A DNA stretch of 30,786 nt from an uncultured virus (IMG/VR IMGVR_UViG_3300021335_000008) (lineage: Duplodnaviria; Heunggongvirae; Uroviricota; Caudoviricetes; Demerecviridae): the IMG/VR virus record IMGVR_UViG_3300021335_000008; one strand, given 5' to 3'. Below, piece by piece: positions 5,070 to 20,088 of the stretch. The notes beneath the pieces were generated by a model that did not search any database, was not told the origin of the DNA, and worked only from the letters and a program-made list of their open reading frames with translations. Each line of letters opens with the position of its first letter. Position 1 is the stretch's first letter. The position numbers and the translations under genes are program-made.

Positions 5070-5426
5070 TTAGCTGTTTACTGCTGCGATAACTCCAGCA
5101 AAGTACATTGCTGCTTTACCTGTCAACTTGCTGACGATTTCTTCATCAACATCTTGACCTGCATCAGTGAGTGCTGCTGTAAGTGCTTCGATAGCGGCTG
5201 CTTTAGATACACGGCCACCGCCTGTGCTACCGCTTGAAGCTGCCTTGGTTGCTGGTGCTTTCTTAACATATACACCTGCTTTAGTCAGAACCATTCGAAC
5301 ACCGTTTGGTGATTCTTCGAACTCGTCTGCAATCTCTGCGACGATCTCCATGCTGTTTTCTGGAGTAGGGTTTTGCGCTTCATATGCAGCAATAACCTCT
5401 GCTTTTTTCTCGTCTGTCCACGCCAT
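5070..5426 (-). CDS. D3: T5 D3-like DNA-binding protein
   Basis: SMEIVAEIA, SPNGVRMVLTKAGVYVKK and KLTGKAA recalled from T5 D3; start at MAWTDE (5426), with an in-frame extension to 5513 possible. Confidence 0.85.
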   Translation of the reverse strand: MAWTDEKKAEVIAAYEAQNPTPENSMEIVAEIADEFEESPNGVRMVLTKAGVYVKKAPATKAASSGSTGGGRVSKAAAIEALTAALTDAGQDVDEEIVSKLTGKAAMYFAGVIAAVNS

Positions 5427-5502
5427 TTTACGTTTCCTTCTGTTAGTTGTTAAGGGTGCTCCTGGACAAGTGCCAGTAGCTTGTATTTGTGCTTGATAAA
5501 AT

Positions 5503-5997
5503 CTATCGCCCATCTCGAGCGTCCCACTTTAGTTTGTCACCATCAGTTTCAAACTTAATCATTCTCATTGGGTCATCCTCAATAAAATGAATACTTTTAA
5601 ATGCAATTTCTAGCATTTGAAAATATACTTGTATTGCTTTGTCTCGAAACTCTTTGTCGCTCCATAAGTGAAAACAATTCCAGTACTCTTTATCAAATCT
5701 ACAAACGCGTACTTGCTGTTGAAGAATAGGATGCATACCTGCAAACTTTTCACATATATCCACACAAGCACGCAATCGTTGACTACCACATATAGGATAC
5801 CAATTAGGCATTACAAGTACAGGAGCTTCGATACCATTTTTTAGTAAGTCTTTTACTAGCTCTTCTTGAACAGGAATATTATGAAAGTTTTCTGCAAAAG
5901 TTTGTTGCTCAATCAACCAGCCTACTGATTTTGTATACCAAGTAGTTGGTGGAAAAGCAATAAGTTCTGCGGTTTCTTTTTTGATTCTATTCGTCAT
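5503..5997 (-). CDS. putative ParB/Srx N-terminal-domain protein
   Basis: ELVKDLLKNGIEAPVLV....PICGSQRLRA resembles ParB boxes I/II. Confidence 0.5.
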   Translation of the reverse strand: MTNRIKKETAELIAFPPTTWYTKSVGWLIEQQTFAENFHNIPVQEELVKDLLKNGIEAPVLVMPNWYPICGSQRLRACVDICEKFAGMHPILQQQVRVCRFDKEYWNCFHLWSDKEFRDKAIQVYFQMLEIAFKSIHFIEDDPMRMIKFETDGDKLKWDARDGR

Positions 5998-6791: not shown

Positions 6792-7094
6792 CTACTGCCC
6801 TTGCTCACGTGGATCATCCCCTATCATCATCCGTAGATACCAAATGGCTTTTTCTACGTCTTGCTTTTTATTCTGCTTGTTCTTGCAGCGCCAGATGTAT
6901 TTGAACGCATTGAGATGGCAATACTCCTCAAACCCTTCGTCTGAAGTGATTTGTCTCATTGCGTCGATGCACTCGACCCCGTCGCGATTATAATGTGCAG
7001 GACTATTCACTGGATCATGTACCAGTGTAGGGCTTCTGTAGCTAATCCCTTTTCCGTCTTTTGCTTCTGTCCAGCCTTCTGATAAATTACTCAA
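6792..7094 (-). CDS. DUF3310 (T7 gp1.7-like) protein
   Basis: [15 protein letters not shown]...NAFKYIWR..K....DVEKAIWYL signature. Confidence 0.85.
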
Positions 7095-8293
7095 AACTGT
7101 TCTGCCTCCGTAGAATCTGCCATAGCCGCCGTACTACTGCCGAGGGCTGTTGTGATTGCGTCAAAGTATCCAACACCTACTTCCTGCTGGTGTCGAGTTG
7201 ATGTGTACCCAAACTGTTCTGCTGCAAACTCTGCTTCCTGTAGCTGAGAGTATGCAAACATTCCGCGATCCTTGTACTGACGTGCAAAGTTAAATACGCC
7301 ATAGTTTGTACTATGAAACCCTGCAAGTGTAATGAACTGAAACTTAAATCCCATCTTTCCGAGTTCGTACTGAAAGTCTTGTAGCTCCTGATCTCCAGGA
7401 ATAGACTTTCTCCAGTTAAAAGAAGGAGAGCAGTTGTATGCTAACATTGCGTCAGGACAAGATCCTTTTACCGCGTCAGCAAACCGTCGAGCCTCTTTGA
7501 GGCAAGGCTTGCTTGTTTCGCACCACACGAGATCTGCGTATTCTGCGTATGCAGCCCCACGTTCACATCCCATTTCAAGTCCGCCTTCGATCTGCCAAAA
7601 TCCGTCAGCAGTACGATCTCCGGACATCCACTTGTAGTCTGCGTGGTCGTAGTCGCTAGAGAGGAGTCTGGCTGACTCGGCATCAGTCCGAGCGACGACC
7701 AGAGTATCAACCCCAGCAACGTCAGCAGCAAGACGAGCGGCGTTAAGATTGCGGATAGCGTCACTAAGAGGTATAAGGACTTTTCCTCCAAGGTGACCGC
7801 ATTTTTTGGCGGACGCAAGCTGGTCTTCAAAATGGACCCCAGCTGCCCCAGCTTCGATGAGGTTTCTAGCCAATTCATAACTGTTTAGTACTCCTCCAAA
7901 TCCTGCTTCTGCGTCTGCAATAATGGGTGCAAACTCAAAGCCAGTACCACTTTCTGCATACTGGATTTGGTCAGCACGGCGGAAAGCGTTATTAATGTTA
8001 CGCACAACATTGGGTACAGAATCCACACTATAAAGAGACTGGTCAGGGTATACCTCATTATTTGAGTTAGCTGCTGCAGCCACTTGCCAGCCTGAACAAT
8101 AAATTGCTTTAAGACCTGCTTTGACGTGCTGTACAGCCTGCTGACCATTGTACGCTCCAAATGTGTGAATGTAAGGGTTTTCTGCAAGAAGCATACGCAT
8201 TTTGTTTGCCATTCTTCTTGCAAGTGTATGTTCAATGTCCATTGAGCCTTGAAGTTTTCTTACATCTTCACGGGTATAATTTCGTTTTTTCAC
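7091..8293 (-). CDS. aceA: isocitrate lyase
   Basis: [21 protein letters not shown], catalytic [29 protein letters not shown] and HQQEVG motifs. Confidence 0.97.
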
Positions 8294-8889
8294 TTTGCTG
8301 TGATCCTCTGTTCGTAGTCAGCAAGAGACTCATCCCACCAAGGGGGAGTTGGTCGATGAGACCAACTGGCGAAAGTAGCCTTGTCAAGATGATAATAGTC
8401 ACGGTAAGACTGTATTGGATCATCGTAGTTTTTGAGTATCTCAGGCATCGCAAGTCCAAACGTGGTGAACCCCACTCGTTCAATATTGATTGGGTCAGGT
8501 AATTTGTTGATGACCTGCCAGAATGACTTGTGTTCTTTGCCGTAGCGATACCGAAATTCCTCTGCGAGTGCATGAGCATAGCACCATGTCCACTCGTAAT
8601 TGTCTAGTGATGATCGAGTCCATATCGTGCAGGGATGATTGTACATCATGCCGAGATAAGGTGTTAAGTTACGCTCTTCTGGTTTCAGAGGCTTCTCAAC
8701 TTTTTTGTACTCATTGAGAACCGCAGCTTCGTCTTTTTCAAGAGCTCTGGGTACGAAACCTAGCAAGCGATCTACCCAAATGGCAGTACACAAAAGCTGT
8801 GCGGCTTCGAGTATCATTTTATTGACGTGCTTGTCTACATGGTACTCGGCACACTTGTCTAGGTTTTTGTCAAGGTAAAATAAATTCAT
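8290..8889 (-). CDS. pyrimidine-dimer DNA glycosylase / DenV-like protein
   Basis: MNLFYLD...[20 protein letters not shown] and YRDYY..K family motifs. Confidence 0.75.
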
Positions 8890-8895
8890 GAAAGT

Positions 8896-8924
8896 ATTAT
8901 ACTCGCTATGAGATTAAATGTCAA
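8896..8924 (-). promoter_or_regulatory. sigma70 promoter, probably giving a leaderless mRNA
   Basis: TTGACA-17-TATAAT, ATG only 6 nt downstream. Confidence 0.8.
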
Positions 8925-9496
8925 GAATTTTCTCGTAGCTTGTTGAGTATAAATGCCGGAGCCGTAAACATATAAGGATCTTTGTCGTGATTATCCTCGC
9001 GGCCTTCTTCGATGAACCAGTCAACAATGTGTCCATTGTCAACAACTGCTGCATATCTCCAAGATCGTCGACCAAACCCCAGATTGTCTTTGTCCACGAT
9101 CATTTGCATTTCTTCTGTAAATTTACCACTACCGTCAGGAATTACTTGTACGTGCTCGAGGTTTTGGTCGTGTGCCCAAGCATTACATACAAACGCATCG
9201 TTTACTGTAATACAGTAGATTGCGTCGATTCCTAACTCAAAAAACTCTGGTGCAAGTTTTTCAAAGTCAGGTAGCTGGTAGGTGGAACAGGTTGGCGTGA
9301 AAGCGCCTGGCAGGGAGAAGATAAGTACTCGCTCTCCTGCAAAAAGATCCCATGTAGTTACGGGCAACCACTCAAAAGTTCCTTCATTGAGAACTCGAGT
9401 GTGAAACGTAGTTGAGGGAATCATGTCTGGTAGTGAACGCCAGTAGCCTTTTTCTTCGTACTGATCGCGTTCGTGTTCTGTGCAATAAATAGCCAT
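8921..9496 (-). CDS. peroxiredoxin (Prx5/redoxin family)
   Basis: PGAFTPTCS peroxidatic motif, VNDAFV, GFGRRSWRY. Confidence 0.95.
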   Translation of the reverse strand: MAIYCTEHERDQYEEKGYWRSLPDMIPSTTFHTRVLNEGTFEWLPVTTWDLFAGERVLIFSLPGAFTPTCSTYQLPDFEKLAPEFFELGIDAIYCITVNDAFVCNAWAHDQNLEHVQVIPDGSGKFTEEMQMIVDKDNLGFGRRSWRYAAVVDNGHIVDWFIEEGREDNHDKDPYMFTAPAFILNKLRENS

Positions 9497-10066
9497 TTAT
9501 GCCTCGCTGTAAGTTAAGTTTAAATTTGCGTGATGTTGTTCATCGCGTCGAACGTACTTAATCATATCAGACAGCTTTGCTTCTGGAAGTAGATCATAGT
9601 AGTCAATCGCGATTTGTGGTGCAGGTACGTCTTGTATACGGCCTGCGTCAATTTCCCCAAGGTAATCGGTGTAGCTTTTTACAGCTTCTTCTTCAAAGTA
9701 ATGTATCATAAGATGTGCAGTTTTAGGTGCAATGAGATACAATACTAAATAGTAGTGCCAGAATATTAATTGTGCCAGTACGATGAGACCCCGCTCCAGC
9801 TTTGTAGGTTGCACTACTTCTATGAAAAACATGAGATGCTTACGTTCGTTTTCAGCTTCTGCAAGCATCTCATGAATTTTACTGCCTTGTCCTTTCTTTA
9901 GCCCGCGAAGGCTTGAAAGGTGTGTGAGCATTCCAGCAACCATCCCAGGCACGCCTGCAACAGTTTCTAGAACTATAGCTCTATGACCATACCGCTTACG
10001 AAAGAACATATCGGCAGTAAACCGAAAGAACTTTGTCATAGATTTTGCTACAATTTTATTAGACAT
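9497..10066 (-). CDS. aox: alternative oxidase (di-iron carboxylate)
   Basis: LETVAGVPGMV, EAENERKHL, EEEAV.SY and RRDE..H iron-binding motifs. Confidence 0.92.
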   Translation of the reverse strand: MSNKIVAKSMTKFFRFTADMFFRKRYGHRAIVLETVAGVPGMVAGMLTHLSSLRGLKKGQGSKIHEMLAEAENERKHLMFFIEVVQPTKLERGLIVLAQLIFWHYYLVLYLIAPKTAHLMIHYFEEEAVKSYTDYLGEIDAGRIQDVPAPQIAIDYYDLLPEAKLSDMIKYVRRDEQHHANLNLTYSEA

Positions 10067-10505
10067 TCTCAAGTCTTGTCATCAGTCGTTCGGCTCGATT
10101 CCCTACTTGTTTGTGCCATAGAGAGTCTCGACCTTGGATAGCAGCTTCTTTCCAATCTCCATGCTCAAGAGCACGGTGCATCATTTTAAATTTACTCAGG
10201 CGTGGTCGTCCTAGATTGAACATCATGTTTACAAGAATTTCTTGAACTTCTCCAGGAAATCCTTCCCAGACATCGGCTTTGTACAGTGCTACACACTCAC
10301 TTACAGCCACATCGAGATCTCGGTCAAAGCACTCTTGTACGCGCTCAACTGAGACGGGTTCTCCGACTTCATATCCGTGCTCTGGATCTGACTCAAGCAC
10401 GAGATGTCCCACTCCGAAGGTTTTGTACCCAAGATGATCCAAATAAATTTCATAGACGACTCCTTCATCAATTTTTAACTGCTCATAGACTGATTCTCTG
10501 TTCAT
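10059..10505 (-). CDS. T4-type lysozyme (GH24) endolysin
   Basis: E-x8-D-x5-T triad (DEGVVYEIYLDHLGYKTFGVGH), NMMFNLG, S.W.KQV..RA.RL. Confidence 0.9.
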   Translation of the reverse strand: MNRESVYEQLKIDEGVVYEIYLDHLGYKTFGVGHLVLESDPEHGYEVGEPVSVERVQECFDRDLDVAVSECVALYKADVWEGFPGEVQEILVNMMFNLGRPRLSKFKMMHRALEHGDWKEAAIQGRDSLWHKQVGNRAERLMTRLENV

Positions 10506-10759
10506 TCTTTATCCTTTGTTGGTTCGTTTGACGCTCTTACGAAACGCCACTCGTCCCGAGCTTTGTCGTACTCATGTATCAGATACGCCCCTCCTAGACC
10601 TAACATCAAAGCACCTTTGTGCTCATCAAAGCTCCAGTTGTATCCTGTTACGACTACTTCTTCTATGTTTTTTCTTACTGGGCGGGGGACTTCCGGTTCT
10701 TCGGAAGCAAGCGCTGACCCCGTTGCGCTTAGTAATAAAAGTACTACTATTTGTTTCAT
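10502..10759 (-). CDS. small exported protein with a TonB-box-like motif
   Basis: Signal peptide ending ALA, then IEEVVVTG; AGGA SD. Confidence 0.7.
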   Translation of the reverse strand: MKQIVVLLLLSATGSALASEEPEVPRPVRKNIEEVVVTGYNWSFDEHKGALMLGLGGAYLIHEYDKARDEWRFVRASNEPTKDKE

Positions 10760-10824
10760 TATTTCCTATGTTGCCCCTTGTGAGGGTCTGCTTTGTGGAG
10801 CAACTTGTGATAAAGGTGTTACTC

Positions 10825-10977
10825 CTAACCTTCGTCATCTACCTCCAATACTCCTTGGTCGATTAGATACTGTACTGTACCCTCGATGCCTTCTCGTCTT
10901 CCAAGATGAAAAGCAGTGCCAGCAGCACCGGCCATACAAACTCCAAACACAACAAGTGCAGTGGTAAAATCAAGCAT
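10825..10977 (-). CDS. small membrane protein (50 aa, absent from the ORF track)
   Basis: GAGGAG SD; MLDFTTALVVFGVCMAGAAG...; first gene after the promoter at 11011-11039. Confidence 0.7.
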   Translation of the reverse strand: MLDFTTALVVFGVCMAGAAGTAFHLGRREGIEGTVQYLIDQGVLEVDDEG

Positions 10978-11010
10978 ACGAATCTCCTCGGTATTTTTGT
11001 AGATGCGTAT

Positions 11011-11039
11011 ATTATACTCAAAAACGGAACGGAAGTCAA
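11011..11039 (-). promoter_or_regulatory. sigma70 promoter (leftward member of a divergent pair)
   Basis: TTGACT-17-TATAAT. Confidence 0.8.
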
Positions 11040-11104
11040 GAAATTTTTTCGGTTATGTCACTTATAACTGCGACTTATATCTTGCTACCAAAGAAAAATA
11101 CTTC

Positions 11105-11133
11105 TTGACTTTCAATGAAAGATCCCCTATAAT
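11105..11133 (+). promoter_or_regulatory. sigma70 promoter (rightward member of a divergent pair)
   Basis: TTGACT-17-TATAAT, ATG 7 nt downstream. Confidence 0.8.
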
Positions 11134-11140
11134 ATACAAC

Positions 11141-11326
11141 ATGAAAGAATATCAGAAGAAACCTTGGACAATGAATGAGCGTAACTTGCTCCGCAATCAT
11201 TATTATCTTAAAAATGAAGAAGAGCTGCTCGAGATGTTTCCAGAACGTACTCTGAATAGTATTCGTAAACAAGTGAGCTACTTACGCAAACGTGGGTGGT
11301 GTTTTATTCGCAAAGGAGCAATTTAA
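11141..11326 (+). CDS. small Myb/SANT-like HTH protein
   Basis: WT..E..LL..HY......L..MFP.RT..SIR.....L pattern. Confidence 0.6.
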   Translation: MKEYQKKPWTMNERNLLRNHYYLKNEEELLEMFPERTLNSIRKQVSYLRKRGWCFIRKGAI

Positions 11327-11562
11327 TGGCAAAGAAGAAAAGAATGGGTAAGTCTAACTACACAAGCCAAGGTCTGCGTCGAAGCAGTACAGGCTGTCGT
11401 ATGCTTACTCCAATGCAACGTCTACGCAACCAGCAAGAAGCATGGTTGAAAGGCAAGCGCGTAATGCTAGTCATTGACGCTGCTGGTAACAAGGCAGAAG
11501 CTCAAGCTGTATGGGGTTTACCTCCCATGCTTCGTAAAAAGGAAAGTAATGCCGAAAGTTAA
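11326..11562 (+). CDS. basic hypothetical protein
   Basis: AGGAG SD; TAATG coupling with the upstream gene. Confidence 0.65.
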   Translation: MAKKKRMGKSNYTSQGLRRSSTGCRMLTPMQRLRNQQEAWLKGKRVMLVIDAAGNKAEAQAVWGLPPMLRKKESNAES

Positions 11563-11740
11563 GGTAAGAAACAATAACGTAGAGAGCGCACTGCGTGTGT
11601 TTAAAAAGAAATGCGCTGACATCGTGTGGGAGTATAGACAGCGTGAGCACTATGTTCCCAAATCAGAACAACGGCGGTTAGCTAAAAAAGCCGCCATCGC
11701 TAGAGGTAAGAGGAAGAAAAATGATACCAAGCAATTTTGA
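11549..11740 (+). CDS. rpsU: ribosomal protein bS21 homologue
   Basis: MPKVKVR.NNVESALRVFKKKC.....EYRQREHY.PKSEQRR.AKKAA.AR matches bS21. Confidence 0.9.
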   Translation: MPKVKVRNNNVESALRVFKKKCADIVWEYRQREHYVPKSEQRRLAKKAAIARGKRKKNDTKQF

Positions 11741-12104
11741 ACTTGCAGGCGATTTCATGGAAGCCTTTGGTCAGGAAGTACAAGTTCACCCGACTTGGCC
11801 TGACTTTAGTACTCGTGAGCTACGCCTTGAGTTGATTCGAGAAGAATATGAAGAACTGGAAGAAGCTATTGAAAATCGTGACCTCGTGGAGGTTGCCGAC
11901 GCTCTTACAGATTTGTTATACGTTATCTATGGGGCTGGTCATGCATTTGGCATTGACCTTGATGAATGTTATCTTGAAGTTCACCGGAGTAATATGAGTA
12001 AGCTCGGTGAAGATGGCAGACCTATCAAAAGAGAAGACGGCAAAGTTATCAAGGGGCCAAACTTTTTTGAACCAAACTTAAAAGATATTCTAGTAGAAGC
12101 CTAA
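11721..12104 (+). CDS. MazG-like / PRA-PH NTP pyrophosphohydrolase
   Basis: LIREEYEEL, EVADALTDLLYV, VHRSNMSK, DGKVIKGPNF motifs. Confidence 0.85.
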   Translation: MIPSNFELAGDFMEAFGQEVQVHPTWPDFSTRELRLELIREEYEELEEAIENRDLVEVADALTDLLYVIYGAGHAFGIDLDECYLEVHRSNMSKLGEDGRPIKREDGKVIKGPNFFEPNLKDILVEA

Positions 12105-12105
12105 T

Positions 12106-12246
12106 ATGGATATAGGTCTACTCGGATTGCTCGCAATCTTTATGTGTCCAATGGTATTTGGTGGAATCACCATGTACTATTCACACGAAGCTATACACAA
12201 ACAAACCGTCGAGAGGTGGAAAAAGCAATGTACTCAGATAAAGTAA
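12106..12246 (+). CDS. small membrane protein (46 aa)
   Basis: MDIGLLGLLAIFMCPMVFGG... fills the gap before iscU. Confidence 0.5.
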   Translation: MDIGLLGLLAIFMCPMVFGGITMYYSHEAIHKQTVERWKKQCTQIK

Positions 12247-12602
12247 TTGATCACTATGAAAATCCTCGCAATGTTGGAAAGATGAATAGAGAGGATAAGG
12301 ATGTTGGTACAGGTATGGTGGGAGCACCTGCCTGTGGTGATGTCATGCAACTCCAGATAAGAGTGGAGGATGGAATCATTGAAGACGCGAAGTTTAAAAC
12401 TTACGGCTGTGGGAGTGCTATTGCTTCTAGTTCTTTACTCACCGAGTGGGTCAAAGGAAAAAGTCTTGAAGAAGCCGGGCGAATCAGTAATACAGACATC
12501 GCACGAGAACTTACACTACCTCCAGTAAAAATACATTGTAGTGTACTGGCAGAAGATGCTATAAAGGCAGCAATTGAAGATTATAATAAAAAGGGAGCAT
12601 GA
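12228..12602 (+). CDS. iscU: Fe-S cluster scaffold IscU
   Basis: YSDKVIDHYENPRNVG, GAPACGD, TYGCGSA and LPPVKIHC motifs. Confidence 0.97.
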   Translation: MYSDKVIDHYENPRNVGKMNREDKDVGTGMVGAPACGDVMQLQIRVEDGIIEDAKFKTYGCGSAIASSSLLTEWVKGKSLEEAGRISNTDIARELTLPPVKIHCSVLAEDAIKAAIEDYNKKGA

Positions 12603-14519: not shown

Positions 14520-14709
14520 GTTGTGACCCCGCTACTGCTTTTCGCCAAGCAATGGTGAATTGCTCTTCCGCTTTACTACTTGCAAAATGTATAGTATTTG
14601 TGTAGGGATCTAATCTACAGGGAACGTCTTCTAATTCACAGATCGCAGCAGCACGTCCAAACAACGGGGTCGATGCAAATTGTGTACTTGGCCCGTAGTA
14701 TTCCATCAC
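14512..14709 (-). CDS. hypothetical protein
   Basis: GGAGG SD; coupled to the upstream gene. Confidence 0.6.
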   Translation of the reverse strand: MMEYYGPSTQFASTPLFGRAAAICELEDVPCRLDPYTNTIHFASSKAEEQFTIAWRKAVAGSQRD

Positions 14710-15050
14710 AGACCTCCTGGGTAGTTCTCAAATTGCTCTAACCCCGCCACTGCTTTTTCCAAGTTTCGTAATGCTGTTTTGGGACTTTTCTCCAAGCCAG
14801 CCAAAGACGCAATTTCAAGTCCAAGACTTTCAGCGATATTATTAACGATTTCCACTTTCGTGATAGGACTTTCACCAGTCTTTGATACATACACTTCTCT
14901 CCTGTATACGCCTTCTCTGCTGAGCTTGCCGATTATTGATTTTGTACTACGTCCTAGCTCTTCTGCTAGTTTATCTACTGTTTCTCTTGTAGGTTCTAAC
15001 ATATACGCTGCGACCATTGCATCGGTCTGCTGTTCAGTATAGTTCGACAT
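14706..15050 (-). CDS. T5 A2-like DNA-binding protein, paralogue 1
   Basis: MSNYT...EPTRETVDKLA...KSIIGKLSREGVY...TK.E.V...LAGLEK; GAGG SD. Confidence 0.7.
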   Translation of the reverse strand: MSNYTEQQTDAMVAAYMLEPTRETVDKLAEELGRSTKSIIGKLSREGVYRREVYVSKTGESPITKVEIVNNIAESLGLEIASLAGLEKSPKTALRNLEKAVAGLEQFENYPGGL

Positions 15051-15222
15051 TCTTGTGCTTCCTCTTTCTGTTGTATTTAGTTTTGTCTTGGTGTACGGAT
15101 GGACGATTGAAATTGTACTTCGCCACGGGGTTGGCAGCGAGTCGCTCACACTGCCCATTACAGTACCATACATCTAGTACTGCATTAAACTCTTTCCCGC
15201 ACTTTCTACACTTCCGTTTCAT
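15034..15222 (-). CDS. small Cys-motif basic protein
   Basis: CRKC...CNGQC; C-terminal H.DKTKYNRKRKHK. Confidence 0.55.
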   Translation of the reverse strand: MKRKCRKCGKEFNAVLDVWYCNGQCERLAANPVAKYNFNRPSVHQDKTKYNRKRKHKNVELY

Positions 15223-15849: not shown

Positions 15850-16034
15850 GAATTATTTTTCGCAACTTCTGAAATGGTTTCCCAGCGTTTGTGTCCAGTA
15901 TCGTAGGAATTGTACTCTATAACCAACGCATCCGAGTTCATATGTAGAACTGGAGCGGGGTCTAAGCGTGCTCTGCTAAAGTGCAAAGCAATTCGGTTAG
16001 ATACTGTCTTCGGGTCGTCTTGTAGGGCACACAT
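15846..16034 (-). CDS. hypothetical protein
   Basis: Start moved to MCALQ, which has a GGAG/AAGGA SD. Confidence 0.5.
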   Translation of the reverse strand: MCALQDDPKTVSNRIALHFSRARLDPAPVLHMNSDALVIEYNSYDTGHKRWETISEVAKNNS

Positions 16035-16209
16035 AGATATCCTTCTCCTCCCAGGTGATGTCGAATCCTTTTCCATGAATAGGGCGTCGTGCATATATTC
16101 GTCCTCCTTGTGTAGCTTCCATCACTACATCGCATTTACCCCAGCCGGGGTTTTCCCATAAAAATACATCAAGGTGATGCCGTAAACTGTCTACTGATAC
16201 TCTCACCAA
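15997..16209 (-). CDS. hypothetical protein
   Basis: ORF track; coupled to the upstream gene. Confidence 0.55.
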   Translation of the reverse strand: MVRVSVDSLRHHLDVFLWENPGWGKCDVVMEATQGGRIYARRPIHGKGFDITWEEKDIYVCPTRRPEDSI

Positions 16210-16385
16210 ATCAACCCCTCATCTTGCATATCGAATAATATACGTTGTACTTGAAGTTCATCAAATGCCCACTCATATTCTAACTCTTTGCGAATGCCAC
16301 CAACAAACACCATGTTCTGGCCTGTAGCAAGAGTAGAAGTGTGACGGTCAACGACCGCCACCATTTCGTGTCGTGATAACAACAT
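16203..16385 (-). CDS. hypothetical protein
   Basis: TAATG coupling with the A2-like gene. Confidence 0.6.
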   Translation of the reverse strand: MLLSRHEMVAVVDRHTSTLATGQNMVFVGGIRKELEYEWAFDELQVQRILFDMQDEGLIW

Positions 16386-16708
16386 TAGCCCACCAACGCG
16401 TCGATCATGAACTGAAGGTCAACCTTAGTCATTTTGTTGAGCGAAGGTAGCTCGCGACCGATAGCATTTTGTACCTGTGCTACCAGCTCAGCCTTCATTA
16501 CGACAGGCTCGCCACGCTTGGTTACGCGCTCAACTTTCTGGTATACACCGAGTGCAGAGAGCTTAGCAATGACAGAACGCTCAGTCTTGTTGAGGCGTGC
16601 AGCCAGGGCGTTGACAGTCTCACGAGTTGGCTCGAGAGTGTACTCGTCAGTGATGATTGTGATGTCCGCGTCAGAATAGTTCGCGCTTGATTTTGCAGTT
16701 ACGTCCAT
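16385..16708 (-). CDS. T5 A2-like DNA-binding protein, paralogue 2
   Basis: NYS...EPTRETVNALA...RSVIAKLSALGVYQK...KAELV...LPSLNK; GGGAG SD. Confidence 0.7.
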   Translation of the reverse strand: MDVTAKSSANYSDADITIITDEYTLEPTRETVNALAARLNKTERSVIAKLSALGVYQKVERVTKRGEPVVMKAELVAQVQNAIGRELPSLNKMTKVDLQFMIDALVG

Positions 16709-16754
16709 AATATTTTCTCCCAAAAATTTGTTTGTGTTCCGATTCAATATAGTA

Positions 16755-16783
16755 ATTATACTACTGAGGGGCAGGAATGTCAA
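16755..16783 (-). promoter_or_regulatory. sigma70 promoter
   Basis: TTGACA-17-TATAAT. Confidence 0.8.
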
Positions 16784-16794
16784 GAAGTTTTTTA

Positions 16795-17127
16795 TCATTC
16801 GGCCCAAAAGATTTCGTCTTCGTCACCAGCATCTGCCGCCATTTCCATGACAAAGTCTACTTCTGTGTCGCTATCGCAGATAACGAACTCTTCAGAGCGC
16901 AGGTCAAAAGCAACCTGGTACACGTTCTTCGCGTACGGAGCAACTTCGAACCAGAACTCGTCACCGTATACTTCCTCAAACAGCTCATCCAGCTCGTGAT
17001 CTGGATATGTGCCCTCTTCCAACAGCCTTTCACGGGTGTCAGCAATAAAGTTGTGCCACTCCAGTGCATTATACATCTTGCACTTTTGGTCAGCGATGTC
17101 GAAGGTTACAGCAATAATTTTTTCCAT
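16795..17127 (-). CDS. highly acidic hypothetical protein
   Basis: GAGGAG SD; D/E-rich. Confidence 0.7.
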   Translation of the reverse strand: MEKIIAVTFDIADQKCKMYNALEWHNFIADTRERLLEEGTYPDHELDELFEEVYGDEFWFEVAPYAKNVYQVAFDLRSEEFVICDSDTEVDFVMEMAADAGDEDEIFWAE

Positions 17128-17154
17128 AGCAAGGTCTCCTCAGTCAATGTAAAC

Positions 17155-17183
17155 ATTATACTACCACGGGCAACTCAAGTCAA
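17155..17183 (-). promoter_or_regulatory. sigma70 promoter
   Basis: TTGACT-17-TATAAT. Confidence 0.8.
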
Positions 17184-17327
17184 GAACTATTTTCCCGAAT
17201 TAGTCATAAAGCCAACGCACCCGAATTCCGGGGGGCCGGTCACGAACCGTCGATGTCAAGTAAAATTTGCACCAAATAGCAAAAATTATCGTAAATTTAC
17301 TACGGTTTGCCCCCAAGATCTGCCATA

Positions 17328-17356
17328 ATTATACTCGACCCCGCTGAGACTATCAA
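17328..17356 (-). promoter_or_regulatory. sigma70 promoter
   Basis: TTGATA-17-TATAAT. Confidence 0.6.
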
Positions 17357-17390
17357 GTTGATTTTTTGGTACAATTGCCCTAAATTGTAC

Positions 17391-17659
17391 TTGACATCGT
17401 CGGTGTACTACTGTATAATCGGCGCCGCCAACCGAGACCCGGCTTTTTGTGAATTTTTACCAATTGTGCAAATTTCCCTTGACATCGAAGGTTTACTACT
17501 GTATAATTGGCGCGCCGGCGCCAAAAGACCTGTTGGTTTCAAAAAATTTTCGTCCATTGCCGCAAAAAAGACTTGACAATCGTCGCACTACTACTTATAA
17601 TGGCGCGAGGTACCCTAAAGAAAATCGTCGTCGTACTACTACTGGCGCGGCGGCGCCAA
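17391..17659 (+). repeat. array of three consensus sigma70 promoter repeats plus one degenerate copy
   Basis: TTGACA-17-TATAAT at 17391, 17479 and 17573; shared TCG...TACTACT spacer and GGCGC after the -10. Confidence 0.8.
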
Positions 17660-17687
17660 AATCTGGATGTCAACCCAGATTTTGACG

Positions 17688-17703
17688 TGTTCCACGTGGA
17701 ACA
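17688..17703. promoter_or_regulatory. parS-like 16-bp palindrome
   Basis: TGTTCCACGTGGAACA, a perfect palindrome matching the chromosomal parS consensus. Confidence 0.7.
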
Positions 17704-17705
17704 GG

Positions 17706-17822
17706 TTAAGGTTGCAAGGCTTCGAGAAAAATCCAAAGGTTGTTGACCGTATCTCTCTCGAGGCCTTTCCGCATGAGGTCGGGCCGAATTTCAATTATGC
17801 GATCAATAATTTTAGCTTTCAT
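17706..17822 (-). CDS. small hypothetical protein (38 aa)
   Basis: MKAKIIDRIIEIRPDL... starts right after the upstream stop. Confidence 0.5.
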   Translation of the reverse strand: MKAKIIDRIIEIRPDLMRKGLERDTVNNLWIFLEALQP

Positions 17823-17823
17823 A

Positions 17824-18456
17824 TCACGCCCCCAACTCTAAGGGGGCGCGGACGGGTAGCGTCCAACCGGAAGGGCCGCGGAAATTCATTCCGCGCATTT
17901 GCTCCCAGCCGATCGCCATATTCTCGCGGCGTTGGCAGTTGAGGAATTTGCCGTAGAGCGAGCGGATGTTCGCAAAGTAAAATTCCGTTTTGCCAGCGGG
18001 AGCGGTCGAGCCGTTCTTGCGGGCTTGCTCCATGATCCAGTTTAAGGCGTGAATGTCGGTGCCTTGATTGCGACCGTGGAAGTATTGCTCTGCCGCGAGC
18101 GCTTCGTTCACGTTGTGAACCTCCATGCAGTAGAGGCGAGCGACCAGAGTGCCAGCCGGAAGGCCGAGCATCTTCTCCCAAGCTCGGACGCATTCACGAG
18201 TGCGATGCACCGCGCCGATCTGGTAATAATTGCCATTCTTGCGAGCGGCTTTCGCGTAGCCGATTTTCGCGAGGATCACGTCGTCTACCAGAACGCTCGA
18301 GAGTTCGGGGAACAAATCGAGAAGCTGAGACGTTGAGATCTTCCAGAAGTAGAGGTGGCCTTGCACCTCGTTTGAGCCTTCTGCGCGATATTCAGCAGGG
18401 CGGAGACCGTTGCCGGTCATGACTTTCCATTGAAGGGTTGGTAGTTGCATTTTCAT
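17824..18456 (-). CDS. putative GIY-YIG (T5orf172-like) nuclease
   Basis: GHLYF...KIGYA...R...AE..FH...TEFY pattern. Confidence 0.5.
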   Translation of the reverse strand: MKMQLPTLQWKVMTGNGLRPAEYRAEGSNEVQGHLYFWKISTSQLLDLFPELSSVLVDDVILAKIGYAKAARKNGNYYQIGAVHRTRECVRAWEKMLGLPAGTLVARLYCMEVHNVNEALAAEQYFHGRNQGTDIHALNWIMEQARKNGSTAPAGKTEFYFANIRSLYGKFLNCQRRENMAIGWEQMRGMNFRGPSGWTLPVRAPLELGA

Positions 18457-18458
18457 AA

Positions 18459-18935
18459 TTAAGCTCCTAGGCTTTCGTTGATTTCAAGTGAATTGTGGCA
18501 TACAAGGCCGTTGTTTGTCAAGCATTCAATGACATTTTTATTGTCATCAAACATGATTGCAGTCTTGCAGAATCGACGCCAGCTCATGCCGTTGTCAGCG
18601 GCGTAGCGCTTGAGGCCGCGCAGTTTGAATAAATCATCGGGCGTTGTGTCGCCTTCCTTGCGAGAGATGATGGTCTCAGCAAACAGGCCGCGAGAGCCGA
18701 AATAAAAGTAGTCAGCCGGACCCATAACGCGAGCAGTGCAAACAATAATTTTTGCGTTTGGCTTGCGTTGAATCTTGCGCCATTCGTGAGCGAGAGGCAG
18801 AAGCGTATCTCTCTCAATAAATTTGGCGGTTGAATGTTCGCGCCAGTGCGCGAGGTTGATTGAACCATCGGGGCTCGTTAAAGCGCGATGGGATGAATCG
18901 ACGACCGTATGGTCAAGGTCAAAAATAAAGTGCAT
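18459..18935 (-). CDS. dmp: deoxynucleoside-5'-monophosphatase (HAD superfamily), T5 Dmp-like
   Basis: FDLDHTVVDSSHR, DTLLPL, CTARVM..DY.Y and FDD motifs match T5 Dmp. Confidence 0.85.
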   Translation of the reverse strand: MHFIFDLDHTVVDSSHRALTSPDGSINLAHWREHSTAKFIERDTLLPLAHEWRKIQRKPNAKIIVCTARVMGPADYFYFGSRGLFAETIISRKEGDTTPDDLFKLRGLKRYAADNGMSWRRFCKTAIMFDDNKNVIECLTNNGLVCHNSLEINESLGA

Positions 18936-19116
18936 AGATATATCCTCCAATGCCGACAATGTTAAGTAAGATCAGATTATAGCATTTATTAGCCGTGGCT
19001 TGCAATGTTAATAATACCAATCCGAGAATCGCAATCATCTTACCGGCGTCGGTGTCGATGATGAAGGGCGCTAACATCATGCAAAGCGCCCCAGCCCAAG
19101 CGCAGAAGCCGATCAT
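18919..19116 (-). CDS. small multi-TM membrane protein
   Basis: Hydrophobic 65-aa ORF; ATGA coupling. Confidence 0.65.
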   Translation of the reverse strand: MIGFCAWAGALCMMLAPFIIDTDAGKMIAILGLVLLTLQATANKCYNLILLNIVGIGGYIYALYF

Positions 19117-19409
19117 CCGATCGACTCCAGAACGCTTGAAAGTTCCGCTTTGGTGAGGTCACCTTCACGGGTTGGCAAAGCCAGAGCCTTGCGAATAGCG
19201 GAGAGATATTCCGCTTTCGTTGGGGTGTCGTCCTTGACACGCTTGACAGGCGAGAGCTTGACGTATTCAACGCCAATGCTTTGAGCCTTAGAGATGACCG
19301 AACGATAGGTCACATTGCCAAAATCGGCGGCCAATTCCTTGGCCTTGGCTAGGTTAAGAGGGGCCGCGGCAGTGATGCGAGCGACCATTTCAGGGGTATA
19401 GTTAGACAT
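19113..19409 (-). CDS. T5 A2-like protein, paralogue 3
   Basis: MSNYT...KELA...RSVISKA..GV.Y.K...TKAE; AGGAG SD; near dmp. Confidence 0.65.
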   Translation of the reverse strand: MSNYTPEMVARITAAAPLNLAKAKELAADFGNVTYRSVISKAQSIGVEYVKLSPVKRVKDDTPTKAEYLSAIRKALALPTREGDLTKAELSSVLESIG

Positions 19410-19442
19410 AAGTAAATCTCCTATTGGTTAGTTGATGTGAGT

Positions 19443-19471
19443 ATTCTCTCACAGATTTTAGAATTTGTCAA
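19443..19471 (-). promoter_or_regulatory. pre-early promoter
   Basis: TTGACA-17-GAGAAT; leader CATCAACTAA...AGGAG. Confidence 0.55.
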
Positions 19472-19649
19472 TGGTAAAATTCACATTTTTGCGATTTTTT
19501 TCACGTCGCGCTTGACGCTTTGCGCGACGCTGTTGGCGACTGCGAGCACGATGGTTTTCGTAGGTGTCCATTGATTCCGCGACCACGATGCCGCCCACGA
19601 CGCCCGAGATAAAGGTTATTAAAACAAGCATTAAGATAGTAATTTCCAT
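19458..19649 (-). CDS. membrane-anchored basic protein
   Basis: AAGGAG SD; N-terminal TM helix and Arg-rich tail. Confidence 0.65.
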   Translation of the reverse strand: MEITILMLVLITFISGVVGGIVVAESMDTYENHRARSRQQRRAKRQARREKNRKNVNFTIDKF

Positions 19650-19674
19650 ATCAATCTCCTTAGTTGATGCAAGC

Positions 19675-19704
19675 AGTATCGCATGGCAATGGGGTGCCTG
19701 TCAA
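19675..19704 (-). promoter_or_regulatory. pre-early promoter
   Basis: TTGACA-18-GATACT with extended TG; same CATCAACTAA leader. Confidence 0.5.
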
Positions 19705-19836
19705 TACCCTAACGCAAAATATTTTTTGGTAATATGTCACAGCATAGGGGGGTTAAAAGACCTTGACAAACCGCGCTCGCGCGCGCACCCCCACACGTAC
19801 AACTTTGGGTATTTTCATACCTCGGAAAAAGAGCAC

Positions 19837-19865
19837 TTGACAAAGTAGCTCAATTGAAATATACT
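19837..19865 (+). promoter_or_regulatory. promoter for the RBP module
   Basis: TTGACA-17-TATACT. Confidence 0.75.
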
Positions 19866-19887
19866 TCAAACAATCGGAGAAAATTAT

Positions 19888-20088
19888 ATGAGTATTACAC
19901 TTAATTGGACAGCAACTGTAACTCGGCAAACTGCTTTTGAAAATATTGAAGAGCAGTATAAAACTGGCACGTGGTTAAAAGAGGGGGTGGAACAGGGAGT
20001 AGTCGAAGTTCTTCTAGACGAAGAAGGCAGTCAAACTCTTTCTGACGCAGAAATTATAGAAGGATTATCTAAGCCATGGCTGACGTAA
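19888..20088 (+). CDS. hypothetical protein
   Basis: GGAG SD; first gene of the module. Confidence 0.65.
   Translation: MSITLNWTATVTRQTAFENIEEQYKTGTWLKEGVEQGVVEVLLDEEGSQTLSDAEIIEGLSKPWLT

Follow-up and report, generated by a model that had tools for sequence, protein, structure and literature searches.

The window analysed here (30,786 nucleotides from an uncultured marine T5-like phage, distant from T5) holds three tandem promoters of exact sigma70 consensus that run toward no gene. Their GC-rich discriminator is found on no other promoter of the genome, their path leads into a hairpin abutting a parS site of the host type, and the same arrangement is kept in dozens of related phages, which argues that it is a real control element. 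We tentatively propose that the array acts mainly in cis, by loading RNA polymerase and firing short transcripts head-on at the boundary between parS and an operon with a homologue of the T5 pre-early gene dmp, a reading that we regard as possible rather than probable. No description of such an array was found in the literature searched.

Two leftward gene blocks enclose a gap of 696 bp (17128-17823) that has no genes, and the array sits in it. The features of the gap are as follows.

17155..17183, minus strand: leftward promoter TTGACT-17-TATAAT for gene 16795-17127, with an AT-rich discriminator
17228..17268, minus strand: conserved CCGGGGGGCC motif, and an inverted copy of the promoter unit's -35/TCGNCGG part
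17328..17356, minus strand: leftward promoter TTGATA-17-TATAAT, back to back with P1, its spacer being a conserved CCCCGC-GAGAC box
17391..17419, plus strand: P1, exact consensus promoter, discriminator CGGCGCC
17479..17507, plus strand: P2, exact consensus promoter, discriminator TGGCGCG, running into the GC palindrome 17509-17522
17573..17601, plus strand: P3, exact consensus promoter, upstream A-tract CAAAAAAGAC, discriminator GGCGCGAGG
17620..17657, plus strand: terminal unit, a promoter-less copy AAAATCGTCGTCGTACTACTACT followed by the GC palindrome GGCGCGGCGGCGCC
17654..17687, no strand: hairpin AAAATCTGG / CCAGATTTT with flanking A and T runs (repeat I9), a candidate bidirectional terminator
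17688..17703, no strand: host-type parS TGTTCCACGTGGAACA, an exact fit to the 16-bp palindrome pattern TGTTNCACGTGNAACA, unique in the window

Direct reading and a scan agree on P1, P2 and P3 as exact TTGACA-N17-TATAAT units on the plus strand, each matching the sigma70 hexamers at 12 of 12 positions with a 17-bp spacer, and with -35 start-to-start distances of 88 and then 94 bp, as a preliminary description of this DNA had reported. That description had also named a common TACTACT spacer motif and GGCGC discriminator, a degenerate fourth copy and one unit that enters a hairpin, and it was right in each respect. TACTACT lies within the spacer of all three promoters, and GGCGC begins 1, 1 and 0 nt past the -10 of P1, P2 and P3, respectively. 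The second unit continues into TTGGCGC-GCCG-GCGCCAA, which contains its GC palindrome. The fourth copy (17628-17657) has 70% identity to the first unit (repeat family D1); neither hexamer is present, and the terminal unit retains the spacer motif TCGTCGTCGTACTACTACT. In the window as a whole, 15 sites with at most one mismatch were counted against 0.32 +/- 0.53 expected, a number reached in none of 100 shuffles, which implies that the phage uses consensus host promoters throughout. The array is their densest spot, and three of the seven exact sites of the window fall inside 211 bp on the same strand. Judged by sequence, the array promoters are genuine sigma70 promoters under selection, and we infer that they fire.

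The upstream gene block starts at two leftward near-consensus promoters within the gap (17356-17328 and 17183-17155), which together with the rightward array make the gap a divergent promoter hub whose rightward promoters face the 3' end of convergent genes. The former promoter is kept in relatives as TTGAC[AT]-AGTCTCTGCGGGGACGG-TATAAT (site 93434 in G001, a collinear 101-kb relative). The minus strand of 17228-17268 reads TTGACA-N17-GCCCCC, and hence has no -10; the inverted repeat I2 (23 nt) is 91% complementary to 17382-17404. Three neighbouring genes bear on the setting of the hub.

16385..16807, minus strand: putative DNA-binding protein of 140 aa, A2-like, encoded second in the leftward operon beginning at the hub
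17824..18456, minus strand: 210-aa ORF, convergent with the array, 57% G+C, of no family, in a gene slot that varies among relatives
18459..18959, minus strand: dmp-like deoxynucleoside-5'-monophosphatase (phrog_415, E 2e-13), homologue of a T5 pre-early gene

The upstream block encodes weak relatives of the T5 A2 DNA-binding protein. The 140-aa protein has weak PHROG matches to phrog_323 (E 3.7e-4) and to phrog_1725 (E 3e-3), the latter being the family of T5 A2 (T5 A2 match, E 4e-52), and its homologues, with 50-82% identity, lie upstream of the element in seven of 14 relatives examined. As a side observation, the A2-like family may count up to four paralogues in the window (5070-5513, 14706-15173, 16385-16807 and 19113-19409), three of which flank the hub; one match is strong (phrog_1725, E 4e-30), two are weak to phrog_1725, and 19113-19409 is included for its sequence resemblance and a marginal D5-like match only.

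The downstream block (17824-19649) is convergent with the array and includes the dmp homologue, which bears out the earlier statement that the array aims rightward at parS and head-on against the pre-early operon. T5 dmp matches the collinear place in G001 (E 6e-11), and in tblastn the dmp-like gene has matches of about 30% identity to the dmp annotated in 893 phage records. The operon is compositionally odd, at 44-57% G+C.

No credible plus-strand ORF had been noted for over 2 kb past the array, and the first credible plus-strand gene indeed starts at 19888. Six plus-strand ORFs tested have no credible Pfam match at E<=1, and none of those in between is conserved among the relatives' ORFs of at least 55 aa; neither way revealed a conserved small ORF directly downstream, which the preliminary description had named as evidence against its view. 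A hidden ORF from the ATG at 17667 was rejected because this ATG is not kept in relatives.

Conservation was assessed with two search keys. A pattern of the promoter plus ACTACT found 104 IMG/VR loci (105 sequences including the window), and the whole architecture is common to 20 of these 105 sequences. The shared order is the CCGGGGGGCC motif (in 14 of the 20), one to four tandem GGCGC promoters, ACTACTGGCGC-N4-GCGCC-AAAA, and then TT[CT]CACGTG[GA]AA; a GGCGC-N3-5-GCGCCAAAA hairpin motif is present in 18 of the 20. The second search was keyed on the terminal unit alone, with the stem of the GC palindrome in the key and no promoters, and found 112 loci, about 66 of which are distinct true members in IMG/VR. 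Among 41 non-redundant elements with full flanks, one of which (L150) is probably a chance match, 39 have one or more plus-strand promoter-like sites in the 650 bp upstream, and in 34 there are two or more. These sites occur at stereotyped offsets (-65, -159, -245 and -342), and 40 elements together hold 88 plus-strand and 51 minus-strand promoter-like sites vs 0.34 +/- 0.51 in shuffles.

The unit at offset -65, which we call unit C and which is homologous to P3, has a -35 of the form TTGAC[ATC] in 35 of 61 anchored family sequences, and its promoter is missing in about half of the family. Its -10 variants include TATAAT (8), TATACT (5), TATTCT (4) and others; the 32 promoter-compatible variants all retain A2 and T6, while the spacers diverge freely. 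Retention of these -10 positions and of TTGAC[ATC] amid drifting spacers marks selection for sigma70 recognition. No sequence of the hub is better conserved than the transcribed terminal unit, and the GC palindrome, parS and the terminal motif each occur once in G001. The convergent layout is kept in all relatives examined, the upstream A2-like gene is also conserved, and the gene immediately after the element varies. Neither 16000-20000 nor 17200-17720 has DNA similarity to any cultured phage, and searches with the 140-aa and 210-aa neighbour proteins found none either.

Matches outside the viral set gave no host clue. Eleven were found in bacterial genomes: several lie on 13-102-kb contigs in MAGs of unrelated phyla and were taken, uninspected, as mis-binned phage, and four in actinomycete genomes are likely chance matches in GC-rich DNA. 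Some relatives carry further structures. An extra promoter with its -10 in the loop of a long inverted repeat, TTGACAACCCCGCCTGGG...TATAAT...CCAGGGTTGGGCACGGGG (L073 1578-1640; also L052, L091 and L005), is reminiscent of hairpin or single-strand promoters. Palindromes of the GTCAAGCGTCAAAAAATTGACAC type repeat after the element in others (L008 1740-1840; L070 and L104 beyond parS), and a GTCAAG motif lies 10-20 nt past the GC palindrome in most members.

The discriminators place the array promoters in a separate class. The 6 nt after the -10 are CGGCGC, TGGCGC and GGCGCG in P1, P2 and P3 (5-6 of 6 G+C), whereas the 15 other sites of the window with at most one mismatch have AT-rich discriminators (0-3 of 6 G+C) and have AAAAATAGTTC-like upstream tracts in common. 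In G001, a 6/6 G+C discriminator is present at two of 25 such sites, both of them array promoters. The GC-rich discriminator pointed out earlier is thus array-specific (three of 18 sites in the window, two of 25 in G001). Because it is confined to the array, the array is very likely under regulation other than that of every gene promoter of this phage. The gene promoters are uniform (of the form AAAAATAGTTC-TTGAC[AT]-17/18-TATAAT-AT, e.g., at 439, 3399, 8924, 15564, 16783 and 23058) and alike on the early and structural-gene strands, so that temporal control is invisible in their hexamers.

Two known systems illustrate what a discriminator can do. The available text on T5 promoters gives the discriminator as the main difference between temporal promoter classes, with a phage protein modulating polymerase contacts there (PMC7472727). 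In the available text on rrnB P1, a DksA/ppGpp target, the GC-rich discriminator is one cause of an unstable open complex, and the stringent rrn P1/P2 promoters resemble the array in being tandem, with an A-rich upstream tract and a GC-rich discriminator right after TATAAT (10.1101/188680). In the array, the A-rich upstream tract is present at P3 and in most relatives. The -35 of rrnB P1 is imperfect, whereas the array has perfect hexamers 17 bp apart, which may stabilise open complexes. Moreover, rrnB P1 differs in its 16-bp spacer and in its start 9 nt from the -10 (10.1101/188680, available text). The GC-rich discriminator agrees with special regulation, perhaps of the stringent type; perfect hexamers with a 17-bp spacer may offset it and blunt ppGpp sensitivity.

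The parS site belongs to the conserved setting, although not invariably. The exact 16-mer also occurs in papers on ParB/parS, among them papers on chromosomal parS and on that of P. aeruginosa. In related elements, parS lies at most 400 bp downstream in 31 of 41; it is absent in the other 10, nine of which retain the promoters. In Vibrio phage phi 3, which is cultured, the annotated left terminal repeat contains two parS, beside dmp and A1/A2. Phi 3 resembles the present phage in carrying chromosomal-type parS in a lytic phage with no clear ParB gene, beside the first-expressed genes, and differs in that its parS come without a consensus promoter array. An ORF at 5503-5997 (164 aa) has a weak PHROG match (E 1e-4), over residues 33-81, to a ParB-like partition nuclease and none in Pfam; it could bear on which protein binds parS.

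The array would feed a single short transcript path. Transcripts from P1 and P2 would be without structure (fold z +0.45 and +0.74), and since no terminator follows either promoter, all three would feed one unit of about 80-265 nt. The hairpin at its end has a predicted RNA fold of -14.3 kcal/mol (z -4.96). A terminator scan of the window did not call this hairpin and found no canonical terminator there. The segment between the GC palindrome and parS measures 22-175 nt in relatives, with a fold z below -2 in 14 of 31 and no better than that in 17. The first base of the GC palindrome lies 1-2 nt past the -10 both in unit B and in the L043 group; the start site would then fall inside its 5' arm, giving an RNA that lacks one arm and forms no hairpin, and the GC palindrome is probably a site at the DNA level. 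No tRNA is encoded in the element and there is no Rfam match at E<=1.

Metatranscriptome data provide a hint of array expression, not proof. Four runs (unstranded contigs) cover both flanking operons, and one of the four, X19, covers the array, with contigs over 17261-17472 and, at depth 22, over the version of the element in a relative. Most neighbouring contigs of that run have a depth of 4-7, and DNA carry-over may contribute to the signal. Among DNA runs, X1 and X2 contain 0.94 and 0.86 of the sampled words. RNA cover is absent at 17806-18339 and beyond 19942, which is not evidence of silence, the gene at 17806-18339 being variable among relatives.

In the reading that we tentatively prefer, the array would drive one short non-coding unit that starts at about 17427, 17514 or 17608 and ends at about 17690, at the hairpin abutting parS. 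The hub separates the pre-early-like dmp operon from the next early operon, and RNA polymerase loaded there at a very high rate would fire head-on at this boundary. Such firing would stop polymerases reading out of the dmp operon and would make the array a one-sided barrier to host ParB clamps loaded at parS, so that both dmp readthrough and ParB are kept off the back-to-back leftward promoters. The GC-rich discriminator, perhaps with the GC palindrome as an operator, would make this activity conditional on the host state or on a phage factor.

The barrier part of the proposal comes from a ParB ChIP profile in which a strong dip marks a promoter firing toward parS (PMC7725951, available text). 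As described there, that promoter is similarly close to parS and oriented against ParB diffusion; it is an incidental chromosomal promoter in E. coli carrying F parS, whereas the promoters here are conserved and multiplied. Because nine of the 10 elements without parS keep their promoters, a ParB barrier cannot be the whole function, and the array would act beyond parS. The terminal unit is also more conserved than a mere barrier needs, and this speaks for an RNA product or for DNA bound by a protein.

Strong tandem phage promoters are textbook elements, and they normally drive genes. The T7 promoters A1, A2 and A3 are very strong tandem host-polymerase promoters about 90-130 bp apart in a gene-free stretch of a virulent phage; they feed one transcription path at the leading genome end, which runs into co-directional early genes. 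The array likewise comprises three strong tandem promoters in a gene-free stretch feeding one path. This path would differ in ending at the hairpin and parS after at most about 265 nt, with the genes at 17824-19649 convergent. A lineage of uncultured marine T5-like phages thus keeps perfect or near-perfect host promoters that drive nothing translatable and point at a hijacked host centromere site. If polymerase traffic is the true purpose, the array would be a natural case of promoters serving as a physical device (barrier, gate or cap), and it would link early phage control to host growth state and ParB. The 700-bp fragment also provides a handle on the start of infection in T5-like phages that apparently lack A1.

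Among the alternatives, a small-RNA gene fares best, although we consider it unlikely. The tandem promoters would make an abundant trans-acting non-coding RNA against host RNA or protein early in infection, with UCGUCGUCGUACUACUACU, the GC hairpin and the terminal hairpin as its conserved part. Such a product would fit the transcribed terminal unit, which is better conserved than anything else in the hub and, where unit C has no promoter, would still be fed by the promoters upstream. The A and T runs flanking the terminal hairpin, the X19 contigs from an RNA library and the stable RNAs of unknown function annotated in the T5 record (rnaX) are consistent with it as well. The start inside the 5' arm in unit B and the L043 group, which would prevent formation of the GC hairpin, argues against it, as do the empty Rfam search, the lack of a complementary target in the window and in the 101-kb relative, and the variable length between GC palindrome and parS.

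A device at the genome end or for DNA entry is somewhat harder to sustain, and we rate it as rather improbable. The hub would lie at or near the physical terminus or the first-step-transfer boundary; its promoters would act as in T7 A1-A3, where polymerase pulls the DNA in, or would form, jointly with parS-bound ParB, a protein cap or stop on the leading end, and the device would replace the A1-dependent control of T5. Gene order lends this some weight. In T5, Vibrio phage phi 3, Stitch and Sw2, the left terminus is about 120-285 bp downstream of dmp, and in T5 the right-repeat boundary comes after an operon for small membrane proteins, transcribed divergently from the receptor-binding and terminase genes. 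A similar operon here contains dmp, ends at parS and has as its first gene a 63-aa protein predicted, from reading its sequence, to have a single transmembrane segment. The position of dmp and this synteny make a terminus near parS conceivable, and the parS pair in the terminal repeat of phi 3, the single copy of the element per genome and the failure of T5 and phi 3 A1 queries to find an A1 homologue in G001 (weak negatives) point the same way. On the other hand, the array, unlike T7 A1-A3, faces oncoming genes and a hairpin, and dmp has the opposite orientation to that in T5. Contig ends were rejected as termini because they share no position: of 80 contigs, 22 stop at most 900 bp from the terminal unit, at dispersed points. 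Four of these stop at most 14 bp from the GC palindrome, apparently an assembly effect. G001 is classed as linear with no end repeats; its ends (L106 19496-20000 and L107 1-523) show a direct repeat of about 525 bp with 87% identity.

The preliminary description had brought in the injection-stop signal of T5, and equivalence with it found no support. According to the available text, the T5 injection-stop region (Repeat Region 3) has paired DnaA and DnaA* boxes in the IRD'/IRC' inverted repeats (10.1101/866236). Here, 17100-17850 has two one-mismatch DnaA boxes in 750 bp, with no pairs, against a window background of 1.8 per kb, which is no enrichment, and this hallmark of the T5 signal is therefore missing. 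By these sequence criteria and the lack of DNA similarity to cultured phages, the element does not match the T5 injection-stop signal. What the hub has in common with Repeat Region 3 and with RR1/RR2 is that these regions are conserved, rich in repeats and palindromes, gene-free and associated with pre-early genes (10.1101/866236, available text). RR1/RR2, in the left terminal repeat, also resemble the hub in holding divergent pre-early promoters; in the T5 record these promoters are in the gene-free part of the terminal repeat, and the injection-stop region is further in. The hub nevertheless differs from the T5 repeat regions in sharing no sequence with them and having no paired DnaA boxes, and the first 12-13 kb of T5 and phi 3 contain, by the same scan pattern, one and zero near-consensus promoter-like sites. 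The word 'promoter' is absent from the available part of the Davison text (10.1101/866236). The T5 nick site Pu^GCGC was also considered: GGCGC fits this 5-base rule, which was dropped as uninformative, and the extended form RGCGCRGG (four T5 sites) is absent from the element, its one occurrence in the window lying inside a gene vs 1.9 expected.

We attach little probability to a replication origin, in which the tandem promoters would open or prime the DNA as at the T7 primary origin (phi1.1A/B) or the T4 origins, with the nearby parS mimicking parS sites close to bacterial chromosome origins. In favour are the lack of genes in the single-copy hub, its divergent promoters and its A/T runs, and the cumulative GC-skew minimum of the window falls at 17400-17800. 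Coding-strand skew is near-zero or reversed in the genes just downstream of the array and is negative in four of five dmp-operon genes vs four of the remaining 47 genes tabulated; the shift recurs, more weakly, in relatives, with a median plus-strand skew of -0.013 downstream vs -0.098 upstream. However, the skew minimum of G001 is at 90-92 kb, at the transcription divergence and 2-3 kb from the element, and since this complete relative contradicts it, GC skew was rejected as evidence for an origin. No initiator iterons and no DnaA boxes in excess of background were found, and T5 origins were mapped near the centre of the molecule (10.1101/866236, available text).

It is similarly doubtful that the array is primarily an operator or decoy array, in which TTGACATCGTCGG...ACTACT and GGCGC-N4-GCGCC would be candidate sites for A2-like proteins and the hexamers secondary. 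The terminal unit repeats the motif but not the hexamers, and an inverted copy lies at 17246-17268; the GC palindrome has a fixed place at the start site, and an A2-like gene adjoins the array in nine of 14 relatives, including the distant L008 and the L043 group. Many units, however, keep the hexamers and their exact spacing with an entirely different spacer, and although T5 A2 belongs to phrog_1725, the A2 similarity of the neighbouring protein is weak (PHROG matches at E 4e-4 and 3e-3; BLASTP to phi 3 A2, E 5e-5).

A broader growth-state gate is a speculative extension to which we give slight credence. In an energised host, and only there, the stringent-type promoters would fire, switching off the dmp operon and removing or polarising the host ParB bound at parS; under starvation they would be silent, with ParB holding the genome. 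The array and parS would then mark the leading end or first-transfer boundary and replace the A1-dependent two-step control of T5.

Antisense shut-off, whereby transcripts would continue past the hairpin and parS, with polymerase collision or antisense RNA silencing the dmp operon, is improbable as well: the convergent geometry, the lack of a called canonical terminator and a plus strand relatively G-rich over the dmp operon, as for a frequently non-template strand, agree with it, but the strong hairpin before parS argues for short transcripts rather than long antisense RNA, and the lack of RNA contigs over 17806-18339 in the four runs is uninformative.

The remainder of the window identifies the phage and its gene content. 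Its genes include a split NAD ligase, a D5-like regulator, a DnaB-like helicase, the small and large terminase and several metabolic genes, and among cultured phages those closest to it are T5-like phages of Aeromonas and Klebsiella, with about 46% identity at the protein level. An auxiliary metabolic gene cluster occupies 7091-12602, with the following members.

7091-8293: isocitrate lyase family
8921-9496: peroxiredoxin
9497-10072: alternative oxidase
11474-11740: ribosomal protein S21
11721-12104: MazG-like
12144-12602: NifU/IscU

The NifU gene of G001 is inverted relative to that of the window.
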